64,000 nt of DNA from Nitrospiraceae bacterium (lineage in GTDB: Bacteria; Nitrospirota; Nitrospiria; Nitrospirales; Nitrospiraceae). A program made the position numbers and the translations under genes. Location: positions 16,513-80,512 of the forward strand of contig DATIGF010000102.1 of NCBI GenBank assembly GCA_035454865.1, given 5' to 3'. This document shows positions 42,932 to 57,887 of the stretch, one piece after another. A model generated the notes under the pieces. The model worked only from the letters and a program-made list of their open reading frames with translations, was not told the DNA's origin and did no database searches. Positions within the stretch are counted from its first letter, which is position 1; each line of letters starts with the position of its first letter.

Positions 42932-42974
42932 GGGCGGACAATGGCAGTTCGAACGTCAAAGGGATGGGGGGAGC

Positions 42975-43568
42975 ATGCGCATCACAAAAGTTTATACTAA
43001 AACCGGCGACAAGGGGAAAACCCGTCTCGCCGGAGGGCAGCCGGTCTGGAAAGACTGCATACGCGTTGAGTCGTATGGCACGGTTGACGAACTCAATGCG
43101 TCGTTGGGGATTGTGCGTGCGCTATGGATGGCGGAGGCCAAGGGACATACCCGAAGACAGGTGGAACGCGAGTTGCGATGGATCCAAAACAAATTGTTTG
43201 ACATTGGTGGCCTGCTGGCGACGGCACCGGGGCAGTCGTTCCAGAATATGCCGAGCATCCGAGCTGAGGATGTCTCCCGGCTGGAGAGGCTTATTGATGG
43301 GTGGCAGGAGGATCTTCTGCCTCTGAAGGAATTTATTCTGCCGGGGGGCGGGCCGATCGCCGGCTCGGTTCATTTGGCGCGAACCATTTGCCGGAGAGCG
43401 GAGCGTCGCTGTGTCAGCCTGATGCGGAAAGAGGCGGTAGAAGCTAATATTGTTACGTATCTGAACCGTCTGAGTGACGCGCTGTTCGTGCTGGCCCGGT
43501 GGGTGGCGCATCGTCTTGGCGAGAAAGAAATATTGTGGGAACGCACGCCACCCCACAGTGGTAAGTAA
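42975..43568 (+). CDS. PduO-type ATP:cob(I)alamin adenosyltransferase
   Basis: YTKTGDKG.T, YGTVDELN, FILPGG, RTICRRAER, LNRLSD. Confidence 0.93.
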   Translation: MRITKVYTKTGDKGKTRLAGGQPVWKDCIRVESYGTVDELNASLGIVRALWMAEAKGHTRRQVERELRWIQNKLFDIGGLLATAPGQSFQNMPSIRAEDVSRLERLIDGWQEDLLPLKEFILPGGGPIAGSVHLARTICRRAERRCVSLMRKEAVEANIVTYLNRLSDALFVLARWVAHRLGEKEILWERTPPHSGK

Positions 43569-43909
43569 ATTGACTCATTCAAAGGGCGAAGGGTGACGGT
43601 CTTCCATCTTGTCCCTGCCAGCAATCGCTTCATGATCCTTCTCTCTCAAAAATAGTGCGGAGTGTCTTCTCTCCTGATCCGGCAGTAGCGCCGATGGACA
43701 GGTGCGTATTCGTATGGAATGACGATTGCGCGCGGGTTGAATCGTTTCCTCAGACAAGAATTGTTACGTATTGCACAACAGTGCACAAAACCACGCAGAG
43801 TGTTCAGGTAGATGGTATCTGCGGGTGGGTCCACCAATTCGTACGTAGTTGACAGCATTTTGATCCACTTTGAGTCAAATGAAAATCTTGTGTCAGGACC
43901 GCGGGCATG

Positions 43910-43926
43910 TCGGCACAAAAGTTGCC
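43910..43926 (+). promoter_or_regulatory. sigma54 (-24/-12) promoter of the chemosensory operon
   Basis: TCGGCACAAAAGTTGCC with GG at 43912-13 and GC at 43924-25; palindrome TGCAC-N4-GTGCA at 43772-43785 upstream. Confidence 0.6.
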
Positions 43927-44107
43927 ATGGCTTGGTCTTGGAAATTGTCCGGTCGTTCAGGTTCTGCTGCGCATAGGCTGAAACCCTGGTTGAGTGCGGG
44001 AGCATCAGCTGTTGTCGAAATTCACGGTTTCCTTGCTAACCACTAACAAGTCGCTACACTTGCGTGAGAACACAGACCAGTTGGTCCTGATAAGGAGGAG
44101 GAGCGCT

Positions 44108-44842
44108 ATGAAGGTGCGGATGTCATCACTGATTGTGGGAGCAGGCCTCTGTGCCTTGGTGATAGGAATGCCTTCTTATGCCAGAGCGGGCGATGAAGCG
44201 GAGACCGCGGAATTACTCATCGCCTTGCTCAAATCCGGTCGAGCCGTGGTGTCCGAACACCAGGCGTTAATCAATGATGCATCAAAAGGCAATAAGGGAT
44301 TCACGGATGAGTTCGTGGCTCACGAAATTATCGAAAAGTTCAAGGCAAAGACCCGTGTCGATCTGAGTCGTCCAAGCGGCATTCCCCAAAGGGACTTGTT
44401 ACTCGCGTTACTGGAGTCCGAACGCGAAGTGGTGCTTGAGGGACAGCCGGTTATTAACAAACAGGGCGTTGCCTTCAAAGGGTTTATCCCCGCCGTGTTT
44501 GCCCGAAAGGCGGGGGAAAAATTTTACAGGAAAACCGGCATCAAGCTGAAGCTGACCGGTGCTGATTATCGGTTTCCAGGCAATAAGCCGGATGACTTTG
44601 AGGCCGAAGTGCTCCGCATGTTTGCCGATCCTCGTCATCCGAAAGGGCAGCAATATGCGAAGGCAACCATGGTGAATGGCAAACCGGTGATGCGGGTGAT
44701 GGACCCCGAATATGCCGGAGCTACGTGCCTTACCTGCCATGGCGGTCCCAAGGGAGAGCGCGATATCACGGGGATGAAGAAAGAAGGATGGAAGGAAGGC
44801 GAGTTGGCCGGTGCGATCAGCATTGTGATGCCGATGCGCTAA
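44108..44842 (+). CDS. Exported c-type heme protein, DUF3365/Tll0287-like
   Basis: AAGGAGG RBS, signal peptide ending ARA, R.P.N.PD.FE, CLTCH, G.LAGAISI motifs. Confidence 0.85.
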   Translation: MKVRMSSLIVGAGLCALVIGMPSYARAGDEAETAELLIALLKSGRAVVSEHQALINDASKGNKGFTDEFVAHEIIEKFKAKTRVDLSRPSGIPQRDLLLALLESEREVVLEGQPVINKQGVAFKGFIPAVFARKAGEKFYRKTGIKLKLTGADYRFPGNKPDDFEAEVLRMFADPRHPKGQQYAKATMVNGKPVMRVMDPEYAGATCLTCHGGPKGERDITGMKKEGWKEGELAGAISIVMPMR

Positions 44843-44881
44843 GGGTGCATGTAATTCTTAACGAACGAGAGGAAGGAACTC

Positions 44882-45244
44882 ATGAGCAAGATTGTGGTTG
44901 TTGATGATTCGTATGCGGAGTTGCAGGTGATTGAGTCGTATCTCAAAGCGGCCAGCCATACGGTGGTGTCTTTCCCAAACACGGAAAAGCTGGAAGAGAA
45001 GATTGCTGCGGAGAAGCCGGACCTCATCGTCATGGATGTGGTGATGCCGGGCCGGAACGGGTTCCAGGCATGCCGAGACTTGAAGAATGATGACCGGTTC
45101 AAAGGGATTCCAATTGTGCTGTGCACATCCAAGGGGCAGGAAAGCGACAAGTTCTGGGGGCAGCAACAGGGTGCCAATGGACACGTGGTGAAGCCCTTTA
45201 AGTCAGAAGACCTGCTGGCTGCCGTGAAGCGCGCGCTGGGATAA
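44882..45244 (+). CDS. Single-domain response regulator, PilH/CheY-like
   Basis: VDDS, MDVVMPG.NGFQACR, TSK...SDKFWG..QGA, KPF. Confidence 0.9.
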   Translation: MSKIVVVDDSYAELQVIESYLKAASHTVVSFPNTEKLEEKIAAEKPDLIVMDVVMPGRNGFQACRDLKNDDRFKGIPIVLCTSKGQESDKFWGQQQGANGHVVKPFKSEDLLAAVKRALG

Positions 45245-45284
45245 TGGAATCGGTGGAGCCTGGCCTGTCACCCGGCTGGAGATA

Positions 45285-45782
45285 ATGGAACCAACGCTTG
45301 AACTGCCACAATCGAGTGCCTCCCAGGGATCTGAACACGTACGATCCGCCGTTCCCTCGCGGATCTGCCTCATTACGATAGGAGGGGAGCTTTTTGCCAT
45401 TGATCTCCGCCACGTTCGTGAGGTGTTTGAGCTCGAATCGATCACCCCGGTTCCCGGGATGCCCGCCTCATTAGTCGGTGTCGCCAACCTTCGCGGGACT
45501 GTGGTCCCGCTGGCTGATTTGCGGCCGTCATTGGGCGTGGCAAGCTCGGCTGCGCCGAAGTATGCCGTGGTCGTGCGACATGGCGCTCAACAGGTCGGTA
45601 TCCTCATCGATGATGTTCCTGAAATTCGGACCATCCATCAGGACGACATGTTGGCGGCATCGACCCGCGGTGTGACCGATGGCCGCCCGTTTCTGTCAGG
45701 TCTTGTGAAAATTGAGAACCGGATGAGCGGGATGGTGGAGGTCTCCAGACTGTTGGCCTCTGTTGAGGGGACAATGAATTAG
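45285..45782 (+). CDS. cheW: CheW-family coupling protein
   Basis: ITPVPG.P...VGVANLRG.VVP..DL. Confidence 0.92.
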   Translation: MEPTLELPQSSASQGSEHVRSAVPSRICLITIGGELFAIDLRHVREVFELESITPVPGMPASLVGVANLRGTVVPLADLRPSLGVASSAAPKYAVVVRHGAQQVGILIDDVPEIRTIHQDDMLAASTRGVTDGRPFLSGLVKIENRMSGMVEVSRLLASVEGTMN

Positions 45783-45885
45783 TCAAACAGCATGAACGGG
45801 CGCGCATGGGACAAGCGAGCGACGGAAACATCACGATCCTAGAGAGGGTATCCATCTATCCCGAGGGGTGAGGAGGAGGAAAGTC

Positions 45886-47775
45886 ATGGCGAGGCACAGC
45901 AAATCGACGACATGGTCAGTTCAATCGTGGTTCCAAAATCTGAAGACTTTGCCCAAGCTGATTGTCGGGTTCTCCGCCGTCGGCGCCATCATGATCATGG
46001 TCGGGTTGGTCGGTCTGATCGGTCTCAACAAGCTCAAAGGTGAGTTGCAGTCGATTTACGACGGATCGACCTTGGCCCTCTCAAACACGGGAGTCAGCAG
46101 CACCAACCTCGGCCTGTACCACGACGCCCTCCTGAGCGTCGCCCGGCAGACAAGAAAGAGCGACTTCGAAGATGCTATTGCCCCGCTCGCCGACTTGAAG
46201 AGGCAGACACTCGCACCCCTCGAGGCCTACCAAGCGTCCGAGTTACACGAGTCGTCGACCGGCCGCAATGAAGGTAAAGACCTGCTGGCTCTTCGCACAG
46301 CGCTACAGGATTATTTCCTGGCTTCGGAAGGCGCCGTCGGCGCCTTCGCCGACAGCTTCGGTTCTTCGCTCTCGGATGATCAAAAGCAGGCGATGAAAGA
46401 TCTCGGTAACCTCGCCTTGTCCGTCGAAGTGGCAAACAAATACAACACAGCCACACTCCGTGTTCGAGAGCTGATGACCACCATTCGAGAAATCGCAAAG
46501 GAATTAAACGACAACGGACAAGCGGAGGCATCCTATCGCACCAACGTTGTGTTAATCGGAGGAATCCTGGCCCTTGTTCTCGGAGGCGCCATCGGGTATT
46601 TCCTCGCCAGATATATTGCTCGGAACATCGTCCATGTGGCCGACGTCGCCGAACAGGCCGCTGCCGGGAATCTGCAAGCGCGAGCCAAGCTGGAGAGCGA
46701 CGATGAAGTCGGTCACATGGCCAAGGCGTTCAATGCCATGTTGGACCGGATCACGGCTCTCGTGTCGACGGAAGAAGAGCGAGACACGATGCAAAAGCGC
46801 CTCATGCAGTTTCTCGTGCTGGTGTCGGACGTCGGTAAAGGAGACCTGACGAAGCGTGGCGAAGTGACGGCCGACATGTTCGGAAACCTGGCCGACGGTT
46901 TCAATCTCATGATTCAACGATTTGCCCAGTTGATGAAGCAAGTCCGCGAATCAGCCGACCGCGTCAATAAGTCGGCCGGAGCGTTGCGGGATAACGCCGG
47001 ACAAATGGCTGGAACCGCCAAACACCAAGCGGACGAATCGGTGAAAACGCTCGGCGCGGTCGAACAGCTGGCGGCCTCGATGCGTCAGGTGGCAGAAACT
47101 GCAGGAGCATCATCGGAATCGGCCCGCCAGGTGCTCCAAGCCACTGAGCGTGGTCGTGTTGCGGTGCAGGAAACCGTCCAGGACATGCAAAGCATCCGGT
47201 CTGCGGTGCAACGCATGTCGAAGCAGGTCAAAGCACTCGGCGATCGTTCGTTAGAAATTTCGCAAATCGTGTCGACCATTCGTGAAATCGCCAACCAGAC
47301 CAACCTGCTCGCGCTGAACGCCGCCATCGAGGCGGCCGGCGCCGGTGAAGCCGGGGCGCGATTCGCCGTCGTCGCCGACCAGGTGCGAAAACTGGCCGAA
47401 AGCTCCACGCAAGCAACGCGGGAAATTGCGGACCTGGTGAAGGTCATTCAGAGCGAAACTCAGGATGCGGTCGTCGCGATGGAACATGAAACGCAAGCCG
47501 TGGAAGCGGGGTCCGCATCCGCGCTTCGTACCGGCGATGTGTTCAAAGAAATTTCAACGATTGCCCAGCGGTCCGCCGAGTTGGCCCAGACCATCGCCTC
47601 ATCGGCGGCCAACCAGACTGCCTCGACAGATCAAGTGGGTCGCTCGATTAAGGACTTCACCGGCGGTGCCGTGGCGACGCAGAAAGCAACCGACTCAGCT
47701 CGTGCGACAGTCGAAGACATGGCGAAGCTCGCCGAAAGTCTGACGGCGTCAGTGTCGCAATTCAAGTTGGCTTAA
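45886..47775 (+). CDS. Methyl-accepting chemotaxis protein (PilJ-like; helical periplasmic domain, HAMP, signalling domain)
   Basis: Two TM segments, [31 protein letters not shown]. Confidence 0.93.
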
Positions 47776-47829
47776 AGATAGCAATGACCCGGAGAAGGCT
47801 TGTGCTTCTCTGGGCATAAAGGGGCACGG

Positions 47830-50800
47830 ATGAGCTCGGAATTCGACCAGCAAAATCTCGTTGCCATTTTTGTCGCCGAAGCGACGGATGGGATGACGGC
47901 ACTCACCAGCGTCCTGCATCCTCCTGATGAGAGCGTTCCTACGCCGCTGCAACTTCAGGGACAGTACATAGTCGCCCACAAGATTCGCGGAGCCGCCGCT
48001 CTGTACGGGTATAGCGCAGTCGCTCAGCTGGCTGAACGGCTGGAGGCAGTGCTTGAACAGGCGTTGAGTGTCCCTGATGCCGAGTGGCCGCGAGCGGTCG
48101 GTGCGATGCGGGAGATGGTTCAAGGAATCCAATCGCTCATTCAGTCAATCGGGCAGGGTGGGACTGAAGACGCAGGTGTAGTGGAACGGTGTCTGGCGTC
48201 CTCGGAGGGGTTGGTTCCGGAGGCGTCGGGCGGAGAGTCTTCCGTGCCGGCTGAATCGTCAACGAGCCCGGAATATATCAATCCTGAACTCGATGCCGAG
48301 GTGCTGTCGTATTTTGCGCCGGAAGCGCAGGAATACCTCGATACGATAGATGGGTTGGTTCAGGAACTGCAGACCAATCCGAGCGATGAAGATGCGAGCT
48401 ATCGGCTCTTTCGAACGGCGCATACACTCAAGGGGTCGGCCTATACTGTCGGCTTTCAAGTCATCGGAGACATTGCCCATCCGATGGAGGATTGCATGGT
48501 CGCAGTTCGGGAAGGACGCATTCAGCTGAGTCGCGAACTTCTGGAAGTGATTGCGCAGGCCGGTGGGATTATCCGACTCATTCTTCGACGCGATCCGGTC
48601 AATGTGGGCCGATTGCAGGAAGAGGTGCCCAGGGTTAGTCGTATTCTGAGCCAATTACGCGAGGGGCAGGCGGTGATACTGTCACCCACGCAGACTGCCA
48701 CGGCGATCGACACTCCTGAGGCGGCCGCTGTCTCGTCTCCTGCGCTGACGACGACAGTCGCCGATGTGAAACCGGATCTGCCGGCAACCCTGACGGACGA
48801 TTACTTGGTTCCCCATCTGGATCCTGAAGTCTTGTCGTATTTCGCACCGGAGGCCCAAGAGTATCTCGAGACCCTTGAGGCCAATCTACTGCGCTTGGAC
48901 AAGGACCCCGAGAATAAGGAACTGATCAATCAGCTCTTTCGGACCGCGCACACATTGAAAGGCTCGGCCTACACAGTAGGTTTCGCATCCATTGGAGATC
49001 TTGTTCACCACGTCGAAGATTTCATGGGCGCTGTTCGCGACAATCGCCTGAAAGTTCTGCCGGGGCACACGGATCTGCTGCTTAGATCGGTAGACGTGGT
49101 CCGAGTCCTCATGCGGAGAGATCCGAGCATGTTGGCCGGGACGAGACTCCGGTTTGAGGCCGCCATGTCAGAGCTGAAGCGGTTGGAACAGGGTGAGGCG
49201 CCTGCATCGGCGAGCCCGTCTCAGAGCGTGTCGGCTCCTCTATCAAGTGTCGAACAGAACGCAGGTATCGGAGATGATCAGACGCTAGGCAGGGCGACAG
49301 ACGGGAAGCCGGTGGAGGAGCGGGAAGTCATCCGCGTCAGTCGCGACCGGTTGGAGCGGCTACTGAACCTCGTCGGCGAGCTTGTGATCGGACGAGGACG
49401 TCTTGAACAGCGTCTGCGGGTTTTGGAGCAGCTGTCGCAGCAGGTATTGGCGTGCAAGAGCCGCTTGGTCGATTCCGTCCAATCCTTCGAGGAAAAGCAT
49501 ACGTTTACTTTCCAAGCCGCACCAAGCACTTCGGCTGAACCGGCTACCCAAGGATTTCCCGGTTCGAGCGATTTCGGCAGTCTCGAGCTCGATAAGTACG
49601 ACGATTTTAATATCTTGGCCCGTCGAATCAGTGAGGTTACCGCCGATATTAGTGAATCGATGTCGCAATTGAGTGGGTCCATCCGGCGATCTCACGAAGA
49701 CATGAGCCAATTGCAGCATTTAACGTTGGGAATGCGAGACGAAATTGCGCGGGCGCGCATGGTCCCTGTTGGAACTCCCTTTACCCGATTCCGCCGTGCC
49801 ATTCGTGAAATCGCTCGCGCATCCAATAAAGAAGTATCCTTGGTCACCTCGGGTGAACATACGGAAGTCGATACGGGAGTCGTCGAACGATTGGTGGATC
49901 CCTTGGTCCATTTGGTCCGGAACGCGGTTTATCACGGCATTGAGCCGTCAGCCGAGCGGATCTCCAAGGGCAAACCTGCCGTTGGAACGGTCTATCTCCA
50001 TGCGGCTCATCGTGGAAACTCGATCATCATAGAAGTTGAAGATGACGGTGCGGGCCTCGACCTGACGAAAATACGCGCGAAAGCCGTGAAGCTTGGACTG
50101 GTGCGGTCAGACCAAGTTCAGGCGATGTCCGAAGCGGAAGCGCTCAAGTTTATCTTTGCACCGGGGTTTTCGACGGCTGACAAGATTGGAGACCAGGCCG
50201 GCCGCGGCGTTGGCCTTGATGTGGTCAAGCGAGTTATCGAAGGGATGAACGGTCATATCAATGTCGAGTCCGTTCCCGGCGTCGGAACAAAGTTTACGTT
50301 GGATTTGCCCCTGACTCTTCTCATTGCCACGGCCTTGCTGGTACGAGCCGGCAATGAGCGTTACGCCATTCCTTTGCCGAGTGTGCGCGAAGTAACCATG
50401 TCGACAGCCGCATCGCTGCAACAGATGGGAGACCGTGCAGTGTTGCATCTAGGCGAGGAAGCCATCGAGGTGCAGTCACTGCGCCACATTCTTCGACATG
50501 AAGTCGGGGCGGTCGATTACACGATGCCGATCGTGATCGTGAGAACGGTGGCCGGCCCTGTTGGACTCGCGGTAGACGAGTTGCTGGGTCGACAGGAAAT
50601 TGTGATTAAATCGCTCGGCTCATTGAAGCCGCTTGAACGATCCGTCTTCGGGGGGGCGACAATTGATCCTGAGGGCCGGGTGGTGCTGGTGATCGATCCC
50701 AGCCGCCTGATGGCCCGCGAATCGAACGAATCCATGGCCGCGCCGGCAGCTCAAGATGCCGCATTGTCGGGGAGCGGCACAACGGGACAAGATGACGAGC

Positions 50801-51198
50801 AAGGCGAAAGAGCGGGAGCCCCTATTCTCCTGATTGATGACTCGCTAAGCATTCGCAAATTTGTCGGGAGGATGTTGGAGAATGCGGGTTATCAAGTCGA
50901 TACGGCGGTGGATGGAGAGGACGGGTTGAGAAAAGCCTCCGCGCAATCCTATCGCTTGATTTTTACAGACCTGGAGATGCCGAAGTTGAACGGGTTTGAG
51001 GTGATTCAGGCTCTGCGGAGCCGTCCGCAAACACAGCAAACGCCGGTTGTAGTCATGACGACAAGGGCGGGGGACAAGCATCGCCAAATGGCCATCAGTA
51101 TCGGAGCCAGTTCCTACGTGGCCAAACCGGTGGAAGAGCGGGCACTACTCCAAGAAGTCGAGCGATGGGTCGGCCGTGTGCCAGCAACCAGGAAATAA
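47830..51198 (+). CDS. cheA: Hybrid CheA/ChpA-like kinase (3 Hpt, dimerisation, HATPase, CheW, REC)
   Basis: AHKIRG and two AHTLKGSA Hpt motifs; HLVRNAVYHGIE, DDGAG, GRGVGLDVV; C-terminal DDS/DLEMP/KP. Confidence 0.94.
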   Translation: MSSEFDQQNLVAIFVAEATDGMTALTSVLHPPDESVPTPLQLQGQYIVAHKIRGAAALYGYSAVAQLAERLEAVLEQALSVPDAEWPRAVGAMREMVQGIQSLIQSIGQGGTEDAGVVERCLASSEGLVPEASGGESSVPAESSTSPEYINPELDAEVLSYFAPEAQEYLDTIDGLVQELQTNPSDEDASYRLFRTAHTLKGSAYTVGFQVIGDIAHPMEDCMVAVREGRIQLSRELLEVIAQAGGIIRLILRRDPVNVGRLQEEVPRVSRILSQLREGQAVILSPTQTATAIDTPEAAAVSSPALTTTVADVKPDLPATLTDDYLVPHLDPEVLSYFAPEAQEYLETLEANLLRLDKDPENKELINQLFRTAHTLKGSAYTVGFASIGDLVHHVEDFMGAVRDNRLKVLPGHTDLLLRSVDVVRVLMRRDPSMLAGTRLRFEAAMSELKRLEQGEAPASASPSQSVSAPLSSVEQNAGIGDDQTLGRATDGKPVEEREVIRVSRDRLERLLNLVGELVIGRGRLEQRLRVLEQLSQQVLACKSRLVDSVQSFEEKHTFTFQAAPSTSAEPATQGFPGSSDFGSLELDKYDDFNILARRISEVTADISESMSQLSGSIRRSHEDMSQLQHLTLGMRDEIARARMVPVGTPFTRFRRAIREIARASNKEVSLVTSGEHTEVDTGVVERLVDPLVHLVRNAVYHGIEPSAERISKGKPAVGTVYLHAAHRGNSIIIEVEDDGAGLDLTKIRAKAVKLGLVRSDQVQAMSEAEALKFIFAPGFSTADKIGDQAGRGVGLDVVKRVIEGMNGHINVESVPGVGTKFTLDLPLTLLIATALLVRAGNERYAIPLPSVREVTMSTAASLQQMGDRAVLHLGEEAIEVQSLRHILRHEVGAVDYTMPIVIVRTVAGPVGLAVDELLGRQEIVIKSLGSLKPLERSVFGGATIDPEGRVVLVIDPSRLMARESNESMAAPAAQDAALSGSGTTGQDDEQGERAGAPILLIDDSLSIRKFVGRMLENAGYQVDTAVDGEDGLRKASAQSYRLIFTDLEMPKLNGFEVIQALRSRPQTQQTPVVVMTTRAGDKHRQMAISIGASSYVAKPVEERALLQEVERWVGRVPATRK

Positions 51199-51257
51199 AT
51201 TGCAGAACGCAGGTTGCACAAGAGTATTCAGAACACCTATGGAATCCAGGTAATAGT

Positions 51258-51788
51258 ATGAGTTTGCGGGGTCGTCAAGCCAGGGTGACATCGCTTGCAC
51301 CTGTCTGTCGGTTTCTGATCGTTACCGTAGGCGGTTTGCATTTCGCCCTGCCGGCTGAACGCATACAGGGGTTGTTGACAATTGAAGAAGCCGGTTCAGC
51401 CGGATTGTTGACGGTGCAAAATGTCACCTATACCAGCATTGATCTGGCCGGGGGTCTTCAACTTCCCGCAGATGCCGAGGGGCCGGAGACGAGAGCGGTG
51501 CTTCTTTCTCATGGGAATGCTAGGGGCAATATCCGTGTCGCTCAGGTTCATGGACTGAGAGAGCTTGAGCAATCCCGGGTGCTCCCGCTGCCAGGGCATT
51601 TTCAAGGTGAGGAACAGACGTGGTATCAAGGGATGGTGCTGTTTGAGGATGGTATCGCGTTGATCCTGAATCCGGCCTGGTTATTGGAGGGGTGTGGGCA
51701 CGGTCGGGCCTCAGGAATGGTCAACGAAAACGATGCAGCCACACAGCTCCTTCCCGCGCGACCGGCGTTGGCCGGAGGGCAGGTCTAG
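51258..51788 (+). CDS. Divergent CheW-like protein
   Basis: FLIVTVGG..FALP...IQGL, V.QVHG, LILNP..LL pattern; operon position. Confidence 0.7.
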   Translation: MSLRGRQARVTSLAPVCRFLIVTVGGLHFALPAERIQGLLTIEEAGSAGLLTVQNVTYTSIDLAGGLQLPADAEGPETRAVLLSHGNARGNIRVAQVHGLRELEQSRVLPLPGHFQGEEQTWYQGMVLFEDGIALILNPAWLLEGCGHGRASGMVNENDAATQLLPARPALAGGQV

Positions 51789-51790
51789 AC

Positions 51791-52234
51791 ATGCTCAGAC
51801 CGTCTCTTTTGCGGAAACAGGAATCAGGATCCCGGTCCTGTCCGTTGCTCATCTTCTCGGTCGGCGGGCGCCGCGTGGCGGTGAAAACCGACGAGGTAGC
51901 CGGTATTTCAGTGTGGAAAAAGAGCACCCCCGTTCCCAGCCGGACGAAGTATGTGTCGGCAGTGGTGCGGAAGGACGATGAAGTGTTTCCTGTCTTCGAC
52001 TTGGCCGGGCTACTTCGCGTAAAGGTCGAAGGTGATGAGTTGTTGTGTCTGACGGCCAAACACCACCGGGGTGCCATGGCCATTTGTATTGATCAGGACA
52101 TGCCGGTGCTTCACACTCTGGATATCGCTGCCATACAGCCTTATCGAGGAGGGGAGTTTGATGCGACCGGGAGTTTTTCGAGCGGCCTTGAGCAGATTCC
52201 GATCATTTCATTGGCCAAGCTCGGCTCGGCGTAG
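51791..52234 (+). CDS. Divergent CheW-like protein
   Basis: LLIFSVGG...AV....V, TPVP, VFPVFDLA.LL. Confidence 0.75.
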   Translation: MLRPSLLRKQESGSRSCPLLIFSVGGRRVAVKTDEVAGISVWKKSTPVPSRTKYVSAVVRKDDEVFPVFDLAGLLRVKVEGDELLCLTAKHHRGAMAICIDQDMPVLHTLDIAAIQPYRGGEFDATGSFSSGLEQIPIISLAKLGSA

Positions 52235-52276
52235 GCCGGGAAGAAATATGACTGGAATGGATAGAAGGGAGTAGGT

Positions 52277-53602
52277 ATGCGGAAGATTTTAGTGGCCGAC
52301 GACAGTATCGCAGTACGAAAAGTCGCGGAGCGACTGCTGACCGAAGCGGGACTTGGAGTTGCGCTGGCGGCAAACGGAGAAGAGGCTCTTGCATATCTAT
52401 CGAAGGAGCGGCCGGATGTCGTGGTGTCCGATGTCATCATGCCCGACAAGAGCGGCTATGAGGTGTGCGCGTTTGTTCGTGGCAACGCCATGCTCGCCAC
52501 CACGCCAGTTCTTCTCATCTCCGGCATTGTTAATGATGAAGTCACGAAACAAGCTGAGATTTGCCATGCCGATGGAGTTCTGAAGAAGCCGTTTCAAGGA
52601 ACTTCTCTGAAAGACCGTGTCATGGAACTCCTGGCTAAGCGCCAGGAATCTGCTCCGGTTGCGGCGCCGGCGCCGGCTCCAAAGCCAGCGCCAGCTCCCG
52701 CACCCGCAGCAGCAATGAAGGCACCGAGCGTCGAAGCCGCAAGCGGATCGCGTGCTACGGAAGAACAGCTCGATGCTCTTCGCCAGGCCGGCGCGAGGCT
52801 CAAGGAGTTGGAGGCACAGCTGCAAGCGGCACAGAGTCGCTCTGAAGGGTTCGAAAAGCAAGTGGCTGCGCTGAAGGGAGATTCGACACGTGTGCGTGAG
52901 TTGGAGGCGTTGTTGGAGACTGAGCGGCACCGATCCACTGAACTTGCTAATCACGTACAGGAGAAAGAGCAACGTCTGACGGCGCTGCAAGAGGTGGAGC
53001 GGGCATTGAAATTGGAGCAGGATCGCAATGCGACCCTCACGCAGGAAGCCCGGGAACTTCAGAAAGCCGCGCAGAAAGTTGCCGAACTCGACGCAACCCT
53101 CAATGCCGAGCGGGAGGCTGCGGCGCAACTGGTTCAGCAGCTCACCGGCCTGGAAGCAGTTGCGGCACGAGCGAAGGAATTGGAAACGCAGCTTGTCCGG
53201 GAAGAACACCGAGCCGCGGACTTTGAGCGAAAGGTGAAGGAAATAGAATCCGGATTGGCGGCTGAACAGGCCCGCGCGGGCGAACTGAGCAAGAAACTGG
53301 CAGAGGCTGAGCGATACCGTCAGCGCACAACCGAGCTCGAGGGGCAGTTGGCGGAGGAACAGAAGAAGGGAGCTGAGATCGTGCGTCGGCTGAGTGAGCT
53401 GGAGCAGGCGGCGCTAAAACTGCAGGAGACGGAAGCACTTCTGGCGACGGAGCGGGATCGCAACGGACTGCTAACCCGTCGCGTGACGGAAACTGAGCAA
53501 GCGGCCGAAAATGCAACCAAGCGATTTGAGGATATGGCCCGCAAACTCGGAGAAATCGCCGGGTTGGCTTCACAGCTCGGGAATGGGAAGGGGCGGTCCT
53601 GA
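52277..53602 (+). CDS. Response regulator with Pro/Ala linker and long coiled coil
   Basis: Intact REC (ADDS, SDVIMP, KPF), APAPAPKPAPAPAP linker, ~280 aa E/A/L/R heptad-rich tail. Confidence 0.88.
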   Translation: MRKILVADDSIAVRKVAERLLTEAGLGVALAANGEEALAYLSKERPDVVVSDVIMPDKSGYEVCAFVRGNAMLATTPVLLISGIVNDEVTKQAEICHADGVLKKPFQGTSLKDRVMELLAKRQESAPVAAPAPAPKPAPAPAPAAAMKAPSVEAASGSRATEEQLDALRQAGARLKELEAQLQAAQSRSEGFEKQVAALKGDSTRVRELEALLETERHRSTELANHVQEKEQRLTALQEVERALKLEQDRNATLTQEARELQKAAQKVAELDATLNAEREAAAQLVQQLTGLEAVAARAKELETQLVREEHRAADFERKVKEIESGLAAEQARAGELSKKLAEAERYRQRTTELEGQLAEEQKKGAEIVRRLSELEQAALKLQETEALLATERDRNGLLTRRVTETEQAAENATKRFEDMARKLGEIAGLASQLGNGKGRS

Positions 53603-53656
53603 TTCAGAACGTGAGACGATCTGTATGATCGGGTGTTTCCTGAGGGACCAAGACCG

Positions 53657-54595
53657 ATGGCCGCCGAACCAGAAGACGCATTCCAAAGAGAACTGATCGA
53701 GCTCTTTGTTCAAGAGGCACAGGAGTGGCTCCAACAAATTCACGTTGCGCTGGATGAACTGCAGCAAGGGCCCGCTCCCGATCGCCATCAAAAACTCGCC
53801 CAAACGATTAGGGCCGGCCTCGCCAATCTGGGCGGCTCTGCCGCTACGATCAGCCTGAGCGACGTCGAGCGGGCGAGTTTTTCCGCGCTTCCCTTCGTGG
53901 AAGCCGTTCAAGATCCTGCCGGGAAGATTTCTGCCAACGACTTTGTCCTGCTCTGTAAACAATTGGGGCATATTCACACGGCTCTTACCCGGGCAACGGG
54001 TGTGACGTTCGATGCTGAGAGTCCGGCCGCTTCGGTTGTAAGCCCTCCCGTCACCATTCCGACGAATGATCTGCTCGCGGCGCTTCGGGAACTCCAGCAG
54101 CGTCAAGCCGGGGCCAGCTCCGTCCACCGGAACCTTGTTCAGACGGTGATTGCCCAGGTCGAAGGGCTCATCAACAGCGGCGTGGGGCAATGCGACGTGA
54201 CCTCCATGCGCGAATTCCTTGACCGGTTCTCAAAAGGAGAGGAAGAATTTCTTCGGCTGGTGCAGCTGCTGCTTCCACGCCTGGCAGCTGAACTCGGGCT
54301 GCTCAAGGCGGGGGGAGGGGGCCCAGGGCAGTCTACTGAACGAATTGAGGCGGTCGTTGAACAAGTAGCGCACTTATGGTCGGCGGCTCAGCAGGTCAAT
54401 GCATCCCAGGCCATGACTTTCTTCATGGGGTTGCACAGTTTTCTCACCATTGTGCTACAAAATCGGGTTGTCGTGGCGGCCAAGAAATACGAGGTGGTGG
54501 AGACCCGCTTACGAGACATATTGAAGACCATTCAAGAGTGGGTGGAGACTGGACGAACGGAGCGCATGGCCATCGGTAGTATGCTCCCCGGTTGA
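53657..54595 (+). CDS. Stand-alone Hpt-like protein lacking the phospho-His
   Basis: ELIELFVQEAQEWLQQI Hpt helix A; ANLGGSA in place of HTLKGSA. Confidence 0.75.
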   Translation: MAAEPEDAFQRELIELFVQEAQEWLQQIHVALDELQQGPAPDRHQKLAQTIRAGLANLGGSAATISLSDVERASFSALPFVEAVQDPAGKISANDFVLLCKQLGHIHTALTRATGVTFDAESPAASVVSPPVTIPTNDLLAALRELQQRQAGASSVHRNLVQTVIAQVEGLINSGVGQCDVTSMREFLDRFSKGEEEFLRLVQLLLPRLAAELGLLKAGGGGPGQSTERIEAVVEQVAHLWSAAQQVNASQAMTFFMGLHSFLTIVLQNRVVVAAKKYEVVETRLRDILKTIQEWVETGRTERMAIGSMLPG

Positions 54596-54681
54596 ACAGG
54601 TCCTCCGATTACCCCCCTGGAGTGGAGATGCGGCCGGATATTTCCAGCCAGTGGACAACGAGAGAAGGGTTGTAAGCGCAC

Positions 54682-56766
54682 ATGAATTGGTATCGTGAGG
54701 CAGAGCGAGAGCTGACCGATGTGGCGGGCGCCGTTCAGAGCCAACGGCCCCTTCGCATGGAGCGGCTTGAGGACCTGGCAGCGGGACTGGTGTCGTCGTT
54801 GAAGCAAAACGATGAGCTGGTCGTGGAGGCGCTGTCCGGGCCGACCGGATCATCACTCATCACGAATCTGATCAATGTCGGGATTCTCGGCAGCAAAGTC
54901 GGGATTGGCCTGGGATACTACGGGAAGGAATTGGAGCGGCTGGCGCTTGCCGGATTGGTCCATGACATCGGATTGTTCGCCGTTCCCCAGTCGCTGCTCA
55001 CAAAGGCCGGGCGTCTGACGCAGGAGGAGCGGACGTTGATCGAGCAACACCCTGAACTGGGGTATCAAGTCATCCTACGAACCGGGACGGACTACCAGTG
55101 GCTGGCGCAATTGACTCGTCAGGCCCACGAGCGTTTCAACGGGCAGGGGTATCCCAACCGGCTCAAAGGGCGGCAGATCAGTGAGATGGCGCAGATTCTC
55201 GGCGTCGTTGACGTGTTCGATGCGCTCGTGAGCGAGCGCCCCTACCGTCGTCGTCTGCTTCCGCACGAAGCCGTCAAGGAGCTGCTTGTGACGGAGCGGG
55301 CGACGTTTCCCCGTGAGATTCTGAAGGGGCTGGTGGAACAGCTCTCGGTATATCCGTTGGGGACAACCGTGCGATTGACGACGGGAGAGGTGGGAACGGT
55401 GGTGGGGGTAAACAGCCGGTACCCGCTTCGTCCGGTGGTGAAGATCAATGAGGAGGGCGGTAACGGCGGGCTGGGATTACGGGAGGTCGATTTGAGCCTG
55501 ACTCCATTAGTCTCGATTATTGAGACGCTCAAACCTCCGGTCGTGGGACGAGTGACGTTTTCAAATGCGCCGCTCAAGGTCGTCGAATCTCCCGCACCCG
55601 GGATTGCCTCCGATCAGTTCACGTCGCTTCTCGAGAGTCTTGACGCCATCGCCTCCGCGATTCAGGGAGTCGTGGAGACCCGGATAGTCACGCCGCAGGA
55701 AGCGGAGCCTTCAGAAGGCGAGTCCGGAGTGATATCGCCGACAGGGAATCGGCTGCCGGACGGGAGCGATCTCCCCTTTCGAAAAGAAATCATTGGGTTG
55801 TTTGCTCTTGAAGCCCGCGAATGGCTGGCCCAAATCCAAACCGCGCTCACAAAGCTCGGGTCTGGTGCCGAGGGGCCGGTACGTTCGAAGCTGTACGGGT
55901 TCATTTTAAACGGAATTACCAATCTGGCCAGATCGGCGTCTACGATTCAGCTTGCCGACATCGAAGCCATGGCATCCAATCTCCTGCCGATTCTCCGCGA
56001 TGTCGGAGGGGCCGGAGTCGAGTCGAGGTCGGAGACGATTCGTTCACTCCACGTCGGGCTTGATCGAATTGCGACAGCCGTGCAGCGTCTGGCAGGAGAG
56101 TACACTGATGTCGAGAAGCATCTGGACCACGCCGAATGGCTCGATCGGTCCTCCGAAGCGCCGGCTTCCCTGTCCCCAACGCAAAACCATGCGAAGGTAC
56201 CAACTCTGGGGACGCCGGAGCGGGTCGCCTCGTCCATCCCGTTGTTGAGGGCGTTACGGGAATTGCAGCAAGCTCGCGCACGATCGGTTCAGCCTGCGCG
56301 AGATGTGTTAGAAGCAGTCATCCATCGCGCCGAGCAGGAAGTCGGGGGGCAGCAGGACCAGATAGATGTTGCGACCGTTGAGCGCATTCTTCGCGATCTC
56401 GATCAACTGGATGAAGAGTTTCTACGGGAAGTACATGAACGAGTGCCTGCAATGACAGGGATGCTTGTCCATTTGCATGGGGAGGGCATGCCCGATTTTG
56501 TGACCGCTTCTCAGCTGGACCCGATTCTGGCTCACGTCGAAGCGCTGCATGATCTTTCGAAGTCGATTCAAGCCGCGACAATCTCGATGTTTCTTCAAGG
56601 GATCAAGTCTTTTCTCACCGAGACTGCCTATCGAAAAGAAGCAACCTTGCCTCAGCGATTGGAGGCGGTTGAAGAACGACTTCAGGCGTTGGTTCCCATG
56701 GCCGAGCAGTGGGTCACGCTTGGCCGTCTCGAACGGACTGCCATTGAAGAAATCCTCCCTGTGTAA
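54682..56766 (+). CDS. Degenerate HD-GYP domain fused to a pseudo-Hpt module
   Basis: HDIG, HERFNGQGYP, DVFDALVSERPYR; C-terminal ~330 aa is paralogous to 53657..54595. Confidence 0.85.
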   Translation: MNWYREAERELTDVAGAVQSQRPLRMERLEDLAAGLVSSLKQNDELVVEALSGPTGSSLITNLINVGILGSKVGIGLGYYGKELERLALAGLVHDIGLFAVPQSLLTKAGRLTQEERTLIEQHPELGYQVILRTGTDYQWLAQLTRQAHERFNGQGYPNRLKGRQISEMAQILGVVDVFDALVSERPYRRRLLPHEAVKELLVTERATFPREILKGLVEQLSVYPLGTTVRLTTGEVGTVVGVNSRYPLRPVVKINEEGGNGGLGLREVDLSLTPLVSIIETLKPPVVGRVTFSNAPLKVVESPAPGIASDQFTSLLESLDAIASAIQGVVETRIVTPQEAEPSEGESGVISPTGNRLPDGSDLPFRKEIIGLFALEAREWLAQIQTALTKLGSGAEGPVRSKLYGFILNGITNLARSASTIQLADIEAMASNLLPILRDVGGAGVESRSETIRSLHVGLDRIATAVQRLAGEYTDVEKHLDHAEWLDRSSEAPASLSPTQNHAKVPTLGTPERVASSIPLLRALRELQQARARSVQPARDVLEAVIHRAEQEVGGQQDQIDVATVERILRDLDQLDEEFLREVHERVPAMTGMLVHLHGEGMPDFVTASQLDPILAHVEALHDLSKSIQAATISMFLQGIKSFLTETAYRKEATLPQRLEAVEERLQALVPMAEQWVTLGRLERTAIEEILPV

Positions 56767-56810
56767 ACACAGCCACCCGATCCCTTCCTTCCCTGTGCGG
56801 GGCAGACTTC

Positions 56811-57015
56811 TAACTGCTTGATTTCACTGAAGCTGCGCAACAGGTTGTGGCTGGCGATGCTTCGATACCTATCGGATCTAAGTCCTCGTAACGGTTAGTG
56901 AAATCATGCCTAATTAATAGGCAGAGTGGTTGAAATCGCCCTATGACAGGACGCTCATGGTCAATCCACATGGATATCCACAAGTCGCACACAGATTTTG
57001 TGGACACGGTGGAAG
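56811..57015. promoter_or_regulatory. IHF site plus cluster of DnaA-box-like 9-mers
   Basis: Reverse AATCAAGCAGTTA (WATCAANNNNTTR) at 56811-56823; CAATCCACA 56962, ATATCCACA 56974, inverted TGTGGACAC 56999. Confidence 0.5.
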
Positions 57016-57365
57016 GATGGCCATATTGCAGAAAGGCGAATGTGCTGAATTGAGAAGGGGAGACGTCATCAAGAATGAGATTTTCATCTTCAGGAGCCAT
57101 CATGAAACAACATTATTGAGTTTCTTCACGAATGAGAAGCAGAAAGTCGTCTGAAAAACGAAAGTCATGCGCGCAGACGGGTCCTACGTGTTTTCGAAAT
57201 TGAAACGGCGCATCTACTTGGCAAAAAAGCGCATCGATCTGAGTTGAAAGAATGCGCGCCGCATCCCGCTCGAGCATTGTGCAATGTTGTACGGTTTGAA
57301 CTCTTGAGGCGGACCGCTATAATGCCGCGGGAGAAATAACTTGTTCCATCTTCAGAGAGGCGTCA

Positions 57366-57887
57366 GTGGCTAGGCTCATAACGGTTCGTCGTCCCGAACA
57401 GATCACGCAGCAGGCACATGAGTATGTGAAATCGTACATCCTGTTTCCATCAGGTCTTGTGGGGTTGATCTGTCTCATCGGTGGAGTCGGAGGGTTGGGA
57501 TATCAACTGATTGCTACAGAGAGCTATACCTGGGACACGTTTTATCAGAGCTCAGGTCTCATCGCCCTGGGGGTGGTCATGGGCGTGGGACAAACCCGGT
57601 ATCACCAGTATCTGTTGAGGCGGTTTCCGGAAGTCCTGGCCGCCCGTATGAGACAGGCATCTACCAAGCGTGGAGCAAAGGCGAAAAAAGAAGCGCAGCC
57701 TGTGACCATCGACCATCCCGGGCGCCCGTTCATTCCGGTGGCCTATGTGGCCGGTACGGCGATTCTTGTGGGAAGCGGCATGATGGCCTACCTGTACGGA
57801 CAGGTGAGCATTGTTCCCGCTATCTTGATGCCGTGGGCAGGGTTCTATTGGGCACGGTTGTTTTTCTGGCGCAGCGTCGTCAAGTAG
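57366..57887 (+). CDS. Hypothetical membrane protein (about 4 TM)
   Basis: GAGG RBS with GTG start; two hydrophobic hairpins; upstream TTGAAC-N16-TATAAT. Confidence 0.75.
   Translation: MARLITVRRPEQITQQAHEYVKSYILFPSGLVGLICLIGGVGGLGYQLIATESYTWDTFYQSSGLIALGVVMGVGQTRYHQYLLRRFPEVLAARMRQASTKRGAKAKKEAQPVTIDHPGRPFIPVAYVAGTAILVGSGMMAYLYGQVSIVPAILMPWAGFYWARLFFWRSVVK

Follow-up and report, generated by a model that had tools for sequence, protein, structure and literature searches.

A probable Tfp-class chemosensory cluster with a heme-c protein and histidine-less phosphotransfer look-alikes in Nitrospiraceae

Does a chemosensory core that is accompanied by three unusual extras, namely an exported heme-c protein predicted to dock on the MCP, phosphotransfer look-alikes that lack the histidine and a degenerate HD-GYP domain, represent a new system or a variant of a known one? 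The window (the whole analysed stretch of DNA, 64,000 nt) comes from a lineage II Nitrospira MAG, 76% complete and here called G000. The explanation that we prefer, with a probability of roughly 0.6 as a whole, is a Tfp-class (Pil-Chp-like) system that lacks adaptation enzymes and would operate without methylation-based adaptation. In this system, g1 is the probable periplasmic co-sensor of the MCP, and the pseudo-Hpt proteins would be FimL-like adaptors.

Gene content, promoter region and conservation

The ten co-oriented genes of the original prediction are real. All of them lie on the + strand at intergenic distances of -34 to 86 nt, and Pfam supports each call.

43772-43785, +, palindrome TGCACAACAGTGCA, about 126 nt upstream of the sigma54-type motif; candidate enhancer-binding-protein site
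43912-43926, +, sigma54-type -24/-12 element GGCAC-N5-TTGCC, 182 nt upstream of the g1 start
44032-44060, +, proximal motif CTTGC-N10-CAAG-NNGNTANACT; sigma70-like -35/-10 pair or else an operator
44108-56766, +, ten-gene cluster g1-g10
44108-44842, +, g1, exported stand-alone heme-c Cache protein, sCache_heme / Tll0287-like (PF11845, 85 bits vs cut-off 24)
44882-45244, +, g2, single-domain CheY/PilG/PilH-like receiver (PF00072, 87 bits)
45285-45782, +, g3, canonical CheW, PilI-like (PF01584, 109 bits)
45868-47775, +, g4, transmembrane MCP (Pfam 4HB_MCP_1, HAMP and MCPsignal)
47800-51198, +, g5, ChpA-like CheA (Pfam: three Hpt, H-kinase_dim, HATPase_c, CheW and C-terminal REC)
51165-51788, +, g6, divergent CheW-like protein (PF01584, 45 bits vs cut-off 23.5); probable start 51258
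51791-52234, +, g7, second divergent CheW-like protein (PF01584, 36 bits vs cut-off 23.5)
52277-53602, +, g8, REC-coiled coil (PF00072, 77 bits)
53657-54595, +, g9, free pseudo-phosphotransfer protein of two Hpt-like helical bundles, no acceptor His
54682-56766, +, g10, degenerate HD-GYP plus module copy (HD_5, 102 bits)
54682-55740, +, g10 N-terminal half, degenerate HD-GYP domain (HD_5 102 bits, profile positions ~35-158 only)
55744-56766, +, g10 C-terminal half, second double pseudo-Hpt copy (profile A1 match 5.7e-123)

The promoter region of the operon is conserved. The palindrome is the sole match in the window (0.05 expected), and its position is conserved in L027, L028 and L137, the three closest genomes. 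For GGCAC-N5-TTGC (here at 43912-43925), the window holds 3 matches vs 0.7 expected. Seven other genomes, which represent five genera, have a sigma54-type motif before the heme gene too: GGCAY-N5-TTGCY lies ~160-195 nt upstream in L027, L028, L122, L128, L129 and L137 and ~100 nt upstream in L133. We did not find rpoN in the 76%-complete G000; it is present in 5 out of 5 near-complete relatives. The proximal motif is kept in all 5 aligned upstream regions and occurs at 14 genus-level loci. These include genomes that have lost the heme gene, in which the motif persists upstream of the first remaining che gene.

The core genes point to a pilus-type pathway. The g4 receptor has a 4HB periplasmic domain (approximately residues 54-223) and a 40-heptad signalling domain. 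It can be aligned gap-free over ~296 residues with 6s18, a receptor of the 40H type, and exceeds the 36H Tsr by 27-28 residues. All three Hpt domains of g5, the only CheA that we detected in G000 (76% complete), bear a histidine. P2 is missing, and the dimerisation domain is extended, with ~150 residues between the H-kinase_dim and HATPase_c matches; a long dimerisation insert has been reported for Tfp kinases. JGI names the g5 orthologues 'chemosensory pili system protein ChpA'. Thus, domain content, the 40H length of the MCP and the JGI labels all support the predicted PilH/CheW/MCP/ChpA-like core. G000 also encodes PilT and PilU, both above the curated cut-off, while no flagellin was found in this 76%-complete genome. 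PilT passes the curated cut-off in 44 out of 44 sampled genomes of the order that carry the pseudo-Hpt module (G000 included), and the 12 sampled genomes without PilT all lack the module. No pilus genes lie beside the cluster. As had been noted, the window contains no cheR, cheB or cheD, and CheR, CheB and CheD were undetected across the 76% of the genome that is available.

The small receiver g2 is 74-96% identical across genera. It stands alone before CheW, where a PilG/PilH pair is missing, which counts against the Pil-Chp reading. Orthologue alignments of g6 begin at residue ~29-43. The g7 frame is open from 51692, with an ATG at 51791, 2 nt past the g6 stop, and g7 is retained behind g6 at most loci. 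In g8, a Pro/Ala linker joins a receiver that has the canonical Asp to ~270 residues of coiled coil; the best solved relatives of g8 are CheY proteins, and its gene always adjoins g9, even in the reduced N. inopinata-type cluster. Judging from domain content, the g5 kinase would be controlled by the 40H MCP with CheW (g3) and the divergent g6 and g7. Its three His-bearing Hpt domains would supply phosphate to three receivers, namely that of g5 itself, the CheY-like g2 and that of g8.

The cluster is ancient and vertically inherited within the nitrite-oxidising family Nitrospiraceae. The order g1-g9 is kept at one chromosomal site in at least 15 genera, and cultured genomes of the N. defluvii and N. 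moscoviensis types have the cluster as well. Of the 112 published family genomes with a pseudo-Hpt gene, 81 have the heme gene at the head of the cluster; in 81 published genomes it shares a contig with g9 and is situated 8-10 kb upstream of it. The expected co-conservation of the heme gene and the last three genes with the core therefore holds. The 'new chemosensory system' of the original prediction, on the other hand, is not a new class but probably a Tfp-class variant, whose kinase JGI pipelines already label ChpA.

Pseudo-Hpt proteins, the HD-GYP domain and the output

Of the predicted 'His-less Hpt-like protein' and its second copy, the missing acceptor histidine and the duplication proved correct, but the module comprises two Hpt-like bundles, not one. 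The Hpt match of g9 itself is weak (E 0.0075); its relatives clear the cut-off, and the family profile A1 matches CheA P1 (E 1e-5). In the AF2 model of g9 (pLDDT 81.5), residues 6-117 and 189-300 each resemble Hpt/P1, and the C-terminal bundle aligns with 1tqg over 105 residues (Z 14.1, rmsd 1.9). The acceptor column lacks His in 12 out of 12 sequences: Ala takes this position in g9, and Thr in g10C and most relatives. The C-terminal half of g10 is 29-39% identical to g9 (E 2e-18 and 3e-12) and groups in a tree with the free module that the sister family and other genera have as a single copy.

In concept, FimL of Pseudomonas is a close precedent for these proteins: both of its Hpt-like domains carry Gln in the acceptor position, and it localises to the pole and has a role in second-messenger synthesis and PilG localisation (PMC3019171, PMC12632253). 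A protein-language-model search placed a 'FimL C-terminal/Hpt' cluster among the neighbours of the module (score 0.91, a lead only). Following the FimL example, g9 and g10C, whose bundles have no acceptor His, would be unable to carry phosphate and may act as docking adaptors for receiver domains, most likely that of g8.

The HD-GYP half of g10 is degenerate. The five other HD_5 proteins of G000 cover the profile from 2-10 to 168-170. Compared with PmGH (4mcw), g10 has lost the residues aligned to E185, H189, H276 and K225 and retained HD, H250, H277, D305 and GYP; the same pattern is seen in 19 orthologues. The module copy may tether this catalytically compromised domain, which probably binds a cyclic dinucleotide, to the same complex. 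The gating by a cyclic dinucleotide in the original prediction is a conjecture. The HD-GYP tail is the least conserved and most dispensable part of the cluster: the gene is missing from 6 out of 20 genera-level loci and from the sister family, with the core retained, and 3 more loci lack the fused module.

These data bear on an alternative in which the pathway is of the alternative cellular function (ACF) type, with a Wsp-like logic. In that case it would control the formation of biofilm, flocs or matrix via cyclic-dinucleotide signalling, not pilus movement, with the HD-GYP protein as effector and the pseudo-Hpt coupling the kinase. Multi-Hpt kinases with REC are known from the ACF class too, the cluster ends in an HD-GYP gene in many genera, and the lack of an adjacent pilus gene fits as well. 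Nitrospira typically live in flocs and biofilms. Additionally, the organism has cyclic-di-GMP signalling, given that G000 encodes at least 7 GGDEF and 6 HD_5 proteins. However, the HD-GYP domain is degenerate in every orthologue, and because its gene can be missing while the core persists, it cannot be the essential output. REC-GGDEF, CheR and CheB, all of which Wsp has, were not found here, and among the sampled genomes of the order the module is restricted to PilT-positive ones. We thus regard an ACF-type output as unlikely and favour the Tfp-class assignment.

The heme-c protein and its predicted docking on the MCP

The g1 protein starts with a Sec signal peptide, whose last residues are ARA, and contains a single CLTCH motif. 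C207, C210 and H211 are invariant in 22 orthologues, which share no other conserved Cys. The original prediction saw in this protein the input of the system, and structure prediction supports it as an input to the MCP. The modelled complex of g1 with the g4 periplasmic dimer scored 0.61 vs 0.11 for the best of three controls. Among solved complexes, 58 of 80 attain the mark of 0.61, as do 2 of 110 mismatched pairs. At least 92% of contacts agree between runs, and partner pLDDT is at least 87. The predicted g4 interface (residues 151-187) includes 3 of the 6 invariant periplasmic columns (A159, Q172 and L179). Within it, 20 of 23 heme-positive loci, which represent at least 15 genera, retain LALSV (residues 182-186) either intact or with a single conservative change. 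The motif is altered in the heme-negative N. moscoviensis clade, in the N. inopinata clade and in the sister family, a covariation that represents about three independent loss or absence events, and it is changed as well in two heme-positive genomes, L026 and L029.

Even less probable than the ACF output is that g1 is a periplasmic redox or electron-transfer protein which merely shares the promoter, the MCP sensing otherwise through its own four-helix bundle. According to a preprint on the sCache_heme family, stand-alone members lack genetic association with signalling genes, and the P. putida member has cytochrome-like properties. Two g1 paralogues in G000 adjoin redoxin/WD40 genes and solute-binding/efflux genes, and the pathway persists without the heme gene in the whole N. 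moscoviensis subclade, which has lost it, and in the sister family. The predicted g1 interface is largely family-wide: Q113, V115, I116, N117, G120 and K124 are conserved also in both non-signalling paralogues, so they may be fold or heme-pocket residues, and only P114 and K118 are orthologue-specific. Against this stand the position of g1, first in the operon across at least 15 genera and 81 genomes and only 39 nt from g2, and a docking score far above the controls. Moreover, no part of the g4 periplasmic domain is as conserved as the predicted contact strip, which is altered where the heme gene is missing.

Thus, in the light of the docking model, g1 is probably a co-sensor that assists the MCP in the periplasm. 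Together with the covariation, the model is consistent with g1 binding to the side of the g4 four-helix bundle at the 151-187 strip. We infer a detachable co-sensor whose heme would convey its redox or ligand state to the receptor, in response to NO, O2 or redox poise.

Comparison with known systems

The accessory genes have no gene-for-gene match in Pil-Chp, Wsp or Frz, as had been suggested. Wsp differs by its REC-GGDEF, CheR and CheB, which were not found here in a genome that is 76% complete. In architecture only, g8 resembles FrzS and AglZ of Myxococcus xanthus, which likewise join a receiver to a long coiled coil in a motility-type chemosensory setting. The g8 receiver, however, is CheY-like and retains the phospho-acceptor Asp, and FrzS is not among the 60 best solved relatives of g8.

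With the HD-GYP phosphodiesterases (PmGH, 4mcw; V-cGAP3, 5z7c), g10 shares the HD_5 fold, the HD dyad, GYP and DxFDA...RPYR. It departs from them in 3 of 8 metal ligands and the Lys after HD, replaced in all orthologues, in lacking an N-terminal receiver and in its C-terminal fusion to the double pseudo-Hpt. Like sCache_heme / Tll0287 proteins (DUF3365, PF11845), g1 is an exported, stand-alone, single-domain protein with a single CXXCH near the C-terminus, and it matches the Pfam family well above cut-off. Unlike them, it has no conserved distal Cys. Its strict linkage to a signalling operon and its predicted docking on an MCP also set it apart from those stand-alone members that have been described.

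FimL, an accessory scaffold of P. aeruginosa Pil-Chp, is likened to the module by features, not by sequence: two Hpt-like domains with non-His acceptor positions, derivation from the Hpt region of a ChpA-type kinase, and ties to a Tfp-class pathway and a nucleotide second-messenger enzyme. The module is shorter (~310 vs ~560 residues), is encoded within the che operon and has Thr or Ala in place of Gln. One copy is fused to an HD-GYP domain, whereas FimL acts on an adenylate cyclase in trans.

Compared with Pil-Chp of Pseudomonas aeruginosa (the Tfp class of Wuichet and Zhulin), the cluster lacks PilK (CheR) and ChpB (CheB), has one small receiver in place of PilG and PilH, three Hpt domains in place of eight or nine Xpt domains and a 4HB sensor domain in place of the PilJ type. 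It adds the heme-c Cache, REC-coiled-coil, in-cluster pseudo-Hpt and HD-GYP genes. Both systems share the order receiver, CheW, MCP and multi-Hpt CheA, a CheA with a C-terminal receiver and no P2, additional CheW-like proteins (cf. ChpC), a 40H receptor, co-occurrence with PilT/PilU and a kinase that is automatically annotated as ChpA.

Gene content and control region

Our ORF listing and Pfam scans agreed with the original prediction in placing ten co-oriented, closely spaced genes at 44108-56766 of the window, separated by intergenic distances of -34 to 86 nt.

Genes of the chemosensory cluster (name, window coordinates, strand, product)
g1, 44108-44842, + strand, Tll0287-like heme-c protein (PF11845, 85 bits) with a Sec signal peptide and one CLTCH motif
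g2, 44882-45244, + strand, receiver of 120 residues
g3, 45285-45782, + strand, CheW
g4, 45868-47775, + strand, MCP with two transmembrane segments, a periplasmic 4HB, HAMP and a signalling domain
g5, 47800-51198, + strand, CheA with three His-bearing Hpt domains, a dimerisation domain (insert of ~110 residues), kinase, CheW and a C-terminal receiver
g6, 51165/51258-51788, + strand, CheW match, weak but above threshold
g7, 51791-52234, + strand, CheW match, weak but above threshold
g8, 52277-53602, + strand, receiver with the canonical Asp, followed by a long coiled coil
g9, 53657-54595, + strand, helical protein of 312 residues with a marginal Hpt match
g10, 54682-56766, + strand, HD_5 (HD-GYP) domain joined to another copy of the g9 module

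The flanking genes are unrelated to the che genes. Upstream, at 40814-43568, lie a TonB-dependent receptor and a PduO-type cobalamin adenosyltransferase, and downstream lptF/G are found on the opposite strand. A 173-residue membrane protein without a Pfam family is encoded on the cluster strand at 57366-57887, and its gene is located 3′ of the cluster in all genera examined. A gap of 600 nt separates this gene from the cluster, and a sigma70-like promoter sequence with a good match precedes it at 57296-57323. No Rfam family was detected within 43500-57400, and NCBIfam gave no specific family for g1, g6, g7 or g9.

The sigma54-type motif proposed ahead of the cluster withstood comparison with relatives. 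Seven other genomes, representing five genera, also carry the 43912-43926 element upstream of the heme gene, at a distance of ~160-195 nt in six relatives and ~100 nt in the locus L133. The palindrome at 43772-43785, a plausible candidate for an enhancer-binding site, is the sole match in the window (0.05 expected) and is kept in the three closest genomes. We did not find rpoN in the source MAG, G000 (2.45 Mb, 76% complete). Because all five near-complete relatives tested carry this gene, we read its lack as assembly incompleteness.

A second, proximal motif (CTTGC-N10-CAAG...TANACT, 44032-44060) is kept in every locus of the genus, and where the heme gene has been lost, it fronts the first remaining che gene. 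This retention is the best sequence-level evidence that g1 and the che genes may be transcribed together from one control region. Inside the cluster, a simple promoter and terminator scan did not exceed chance, with 4 hits where 4.4 were expected and 12 where 12.7 were.

A heme-c protein as the putative input

Nitrospira are the main nitrite oxidisers, including complete ammonia oxidisers, of soils, waters and treatment plants. To our knowledge, gradient sensing and aggregation decisions in these bacteria are essentially unstudied. The cluster is the most conserved chemosensory pathway of Nitrospira and the only one found in G000, which makes it a concrete candidate for redox or NO sensing.

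The most far-reaching reading, to which we assign a probability of about 35%, is that the heme-c Cache protein g1 may serve as a detachable periplasmic co-receptor on the 4HB of a pilus-type chemoreceptor. The outcome would be a methylation-free taxis or aggregation response to redox, NO or O2 in nitrite-oxidising Nitrospira, with the signal routed via FimL-like, His-less double-Hpt adaptors, one of which is joined to a pseudo-HD-GYP that would bind a cyclic dinucleotide. If true, this would be the first function for the large stand-alone branch of the sCache_heme family and the first sensory pathway of such a kind described in nitrifiers. What is new here is the family-wide synteny, the promoter footprints, the co-occurrence with PilT, the conserved degeneracy of the HD-GYP domain and the predicted docking of the heme protein on the receptor with covariation.

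The PF11845 score of g1 lies well above the cut-off of 24, and its signal peptide was read from the sequence. Residues C207, C210 and H211 are invariant among 22 orthologues, and no Cys outside CXXCH is conserved among them. In this respect g1 differs from Tll0287, whose axial ligation is Cys/His, although it is spectroscopy that decides ligation. A phmmer search of g1 against PDB sequences returned nothing, Tll0287 included.

A 2026 preprint describes the family as heme-c Cache domains, with fused members acting as NO sensors (10.64898/2026.02.01.703092). Stand-alone members, about half of the family, are reported there to look redox-active and to show no association with signalling genes (10.64898/2026.02.01.703092). 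The operon linkage of g1 is a counter-example to the latter statement, as this stand-alone gene is fixed at the head of the che operon, unlike its two paralogues in G000, which are found in non-signalling contexts. These Tll0287-like paralogues (43-44% identity) are located at G000:C20:4713-5567 and G000:C86:39347-40108 (loci L139 and L140); one is accompanied by redoxin/WD40 genes and the other by solute-binding/efflux genes.

Structure prediction between the components, envisaged in the original prediction, favoured the pairing of g1 with g4. We modelled g1 residues 28-244 with g4 residues 54-223, the periplasmic domain, as a dimer from 22-row alignments and obtained a score of 0.61, against 0.11 for the best of three controls. 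Of 80 solved complexes, 58 reach this mark, as do 2 of 110 mismatched pairs; the calibration is only rough for this set-up. Contact agreement between runs was at least 92%, and the partner pLDDT was at least 87. We know of no solved complex of a heme-c Cache protein with an MCP. The model supports binding of g1 to the periplasmic domain of g4 but does not show it.

The predicted contact strip of g4 (residues 151-187) holds three of the six invariant periplasmic columns. If one conservative change (T or I, at one position only) is tolerated, its LALSV motif is retained in 20 of the 23 heme-positive loci, including loci with as little as 76% cytoplasmic identity. Among the three exceptions, the loci L026 and L029 are clearly changed. 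It differs in the N. moscoviensis clade, which is heme-negative and has 88-89% cytoplasmic identity, as well as in the N. inopinata clade and the sister family. The covariation with the heme gene amounts to approximately three independent events. On the heme-protein side, most contact residues are kept in the paralogues too.

Pseudo-Hpt modules and the degenerate HD-GYP domain

The description of g9 as a His-less Hpt-like protein, with a second copy fused to the HD-GYP domain of g10, was confirmed. In an alignment of 12 module sequences (A1), the acceptor column holds no His at all: Thr occurs in eight sequences, one of them g10C (the C-terminal half of g10), and Ala in three, among them g9; the last has Phe. 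The A1 profile recovers ~100 clusters at E < 1e-30 among 1.8 billion proteins, and beyond those it matches the Hpt repeats of giant ChpA-like kinases. Against PDB it finds CheA P1 at E 1e-5. Designer PPR proteins came out on top of the same search and were discarded as repeat-inflated artefacts with no single significant stretch. Several relatives of g9 exceed the Pfam Hpt cut-off.

The AlphaFold model of g9 (pLDDT 81.5) consists of two bundles. The superposition of the C-terminal bundle (residues 189-300) on T. maritima P1 covers all 105 residues, with Z 14.1 and an rmsd of 1.9. For the N-terminal bundle (residues 6-117), the matches are to other Hpt domains, with Z ~10-11, a range common among helical bundles. 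A Foldseek search of PDB with the complete g9 model had no match at E <= 0.001, and the domain-wise search alone was informative.

FimL is described as having two Hpt-like domains with non-His acceptor sites and a polar localisation; it controls a second-messenger enzyme and is needed for the localisation of PilG (PMC3019171, PMC12632253). Two Hpt-like domains without a phospho-accepting His, the mark of a FimL-like scaffold, are also what we found in the g9 module, a likeness of architecture drawn from descriptions of FimL. A match to FimL itself appeared as an Atlas lead only (score 0.91). This carries the idea of His-less Hpt domains as scaffolds into a further phylum, where a natural fusion links one copy to a second-messenger domain. 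In a midpoint-rooted tree, the fused copies group with free modules that occur as single copies in the sister family and in several genera, while the g9-type copies form a separate clade. This grouping suggests that the module was duplicated and that the older type may then have become fused to HD-GYP.

The HD-GYP half of g10 matches PF13487 (HD_5) at 102 bits and retains the HD dyad and the GYP motif. In comparison with PmGH (4mcw), it keeps HD, H250, H277, D305, GYP and RPYR. The complete set of metal ligands (E185, H189, H221, D222, H250, H276, H277 and D305 in PmGH numbering), together with the Lys that follows HD, is not present in g10. As anticipated, the domain is degenerate: the positions aligned to E185, H189, H276 and K225 hold no ligand residue in the window copy or in any of 18 orthologues taken from other genomes, and the substitutions TNL..NV, HDIG[LI]F and AHER are common to orthologues across genera (n = 19). 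Since the degeneracy itself is conserved, it argues for a retained function that is probably non-catalytic or altered. G000 encodes at least seven GGDEF and at least six HD_5 proteins, and the other HD_5 proteins match the profile over essentially its full length.

Between HD-GYP and the second module, g10 residues ~200-355 (window 55280-55740) have no Pfam match, contain a motif, YPLGTTVRL..GE.G.V, and are conserved among orthologues.

Conservation of the cluster and comparison with known systems

Of 36 sampled genomes of the genus, 34 contain the g9 module, as do all nine of the sister family. Two other families of the same order yielded no such module, and ~250 other Nitrospirota genomes gave no more than Hpt-only matches in kinases. 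All named members of the g9 family belong to Nitrospirota or Nitrospirales; N. moscoviensis, for one, has g9 at 64% identity. The strain NS4 carries a cluster of the g1-g10 type. The paper on this strain lists a full type IV pilus set along with MCP and CheW/Y, with no flagellar genes and without deeper analysis (PMC12542776).

A tblastn search of all ten proteins against 40 fetched loci showed that at least 15 genera share one gene order: adenosyltransferase, g1 to g9, an optional AAA_22 gene, HD-GYP, second module, small membrane protein and lptF/G. A single order at a fixed site indicates vertical inheritance. In several genera, synteny with the cluster extends to the adenosyltransferase. 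In 81 of 112 published g9-bearing genomes (113 with the unpublished genome G402, which is left out of the count of 81), g9 shares a contig with an orthologue of the heme gene 8-10 kb upstream of it, and in about a dozen further genomes the two genes are on separate contigs. Our conclusions do not depend on G402 or on the two further unpublished genomes that came up, G348 and G384. In 10 of 18 sampled genomes of the genus (N. moscoviensis-like), only heme paralogues are left, and a remnant of the heme gene persists at one locus (L031).

The tail of the cluster is its variable part. HD-GYP is absent from six genera-level loci and the sister family, and it occurs without a fused module in three further loci and the N. 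moscoviensis clade. Genomes of the N. inopinata type (loci L018, L019 and L020) carry a reduced cluster of CheW, MCP, a shorter CheA, g8 and g9, which lacks the heme gene, g2, g6, g7 and HD-GYP but shares the chromosomal site and the proximal promoter motif of the full cluster. Thus, the supposed co-conservation of the outer genes with the core holds for the heme gene and for g8 and g9. It does not hold for HD-GYP, which is an accessory part of the system.

In many Nitrospiraceae, a P-loop ATPase gene (AAA_22, ~280 residues) that we read as ExeA/MshM-like lies between the g9 and g10 orthologues (for instance L027:12085-12912 and L014:12038-12907). It is absent at 54596-54681 of the window and was not found elsewhere in G000.

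The system class was assessed from several features. A kinase of the Tfp (pilus-type, Pil-Chp-like) class has multiple Hpt domains, a C-terminal receiver and no P2 (PMC10782961). In g5 we found three Hpt stretches, a REC domain at 1009-1120 and no Pfam match to a P2/CheY-binding domain. The receptor g4 belongs to the 40-heptad class: it aligns without gaps to 6s18 over ~296 residues, exceeds the 36H Tsr by 27-28 residues and extends ~141 residues from the hairpin tip to the C-terminus. JGI names g5 orthologues 'ChpA', which is a proxy for the class and not a class HMM. G000 has one CheA and five T2SSE-type ATPases; two of the latter form an adjacent PilT/PilU pair that scores above the curated PilT cut-off. 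PilT exceeds this cut-off in all 44 module-bearing sampled genomes, G000 among them, and the module is missing from all 12 PilT-negative ones, a co-occurrence confounded by genome relatedness. The multi-Hpt kinase without P2, its extended dimerisation domain, the 40H receptor, the ChpA label and the restriction to PilT-positive genomes point to the Tfp class.

As had been noted for the window, cheR, cheB and cheD are lacking: neither CheR (PF01739), CheB (PF01339), CheD nor flagellin was found across the 76%-complete G000, and no CheR or CheB occurs in the cluster of any relative examined. Cyanobacterial Tfp systems are likewise not known to include CheR or CheB. Their lack therefore argues against identity with Pil-Chp and not against the Tfp class.

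The nearest known system is Pil-Chp of Pseudomonas, which has PilK (CheR) and ChpB (CheB), both missing here. It places PilG and PilH before CheW and the MCP, whereas the Nitrospira cluster has one small receiver there, the 120-residue g2. The second receiver is the coiled-coil-fused g8, which does not stand out as FrzS-like, and all the accessory genes differ. Membership in Frz was rejected, as g4 has two transmembrane segments and a periplasmic 4HB (FrzCD is cytoplasmic) and neither a dual-REC protein (FrzZ) nor CheR or CheB is present. Wsp (class ACF) fails on the lack of REC-GGDEF, CheR and CheB in the cluster and of CheR and CheB in the genome as searched. The cluster matches none of the three gene for gene, and the original prediction was right that its accessory parts fit neither Pil-Chp, Wsp nor Frz. 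The further proposal of a new kind of system was not upheld: the cluster is a real and biologically coherent, lineage-specific elaboration of a known kind of pathway.
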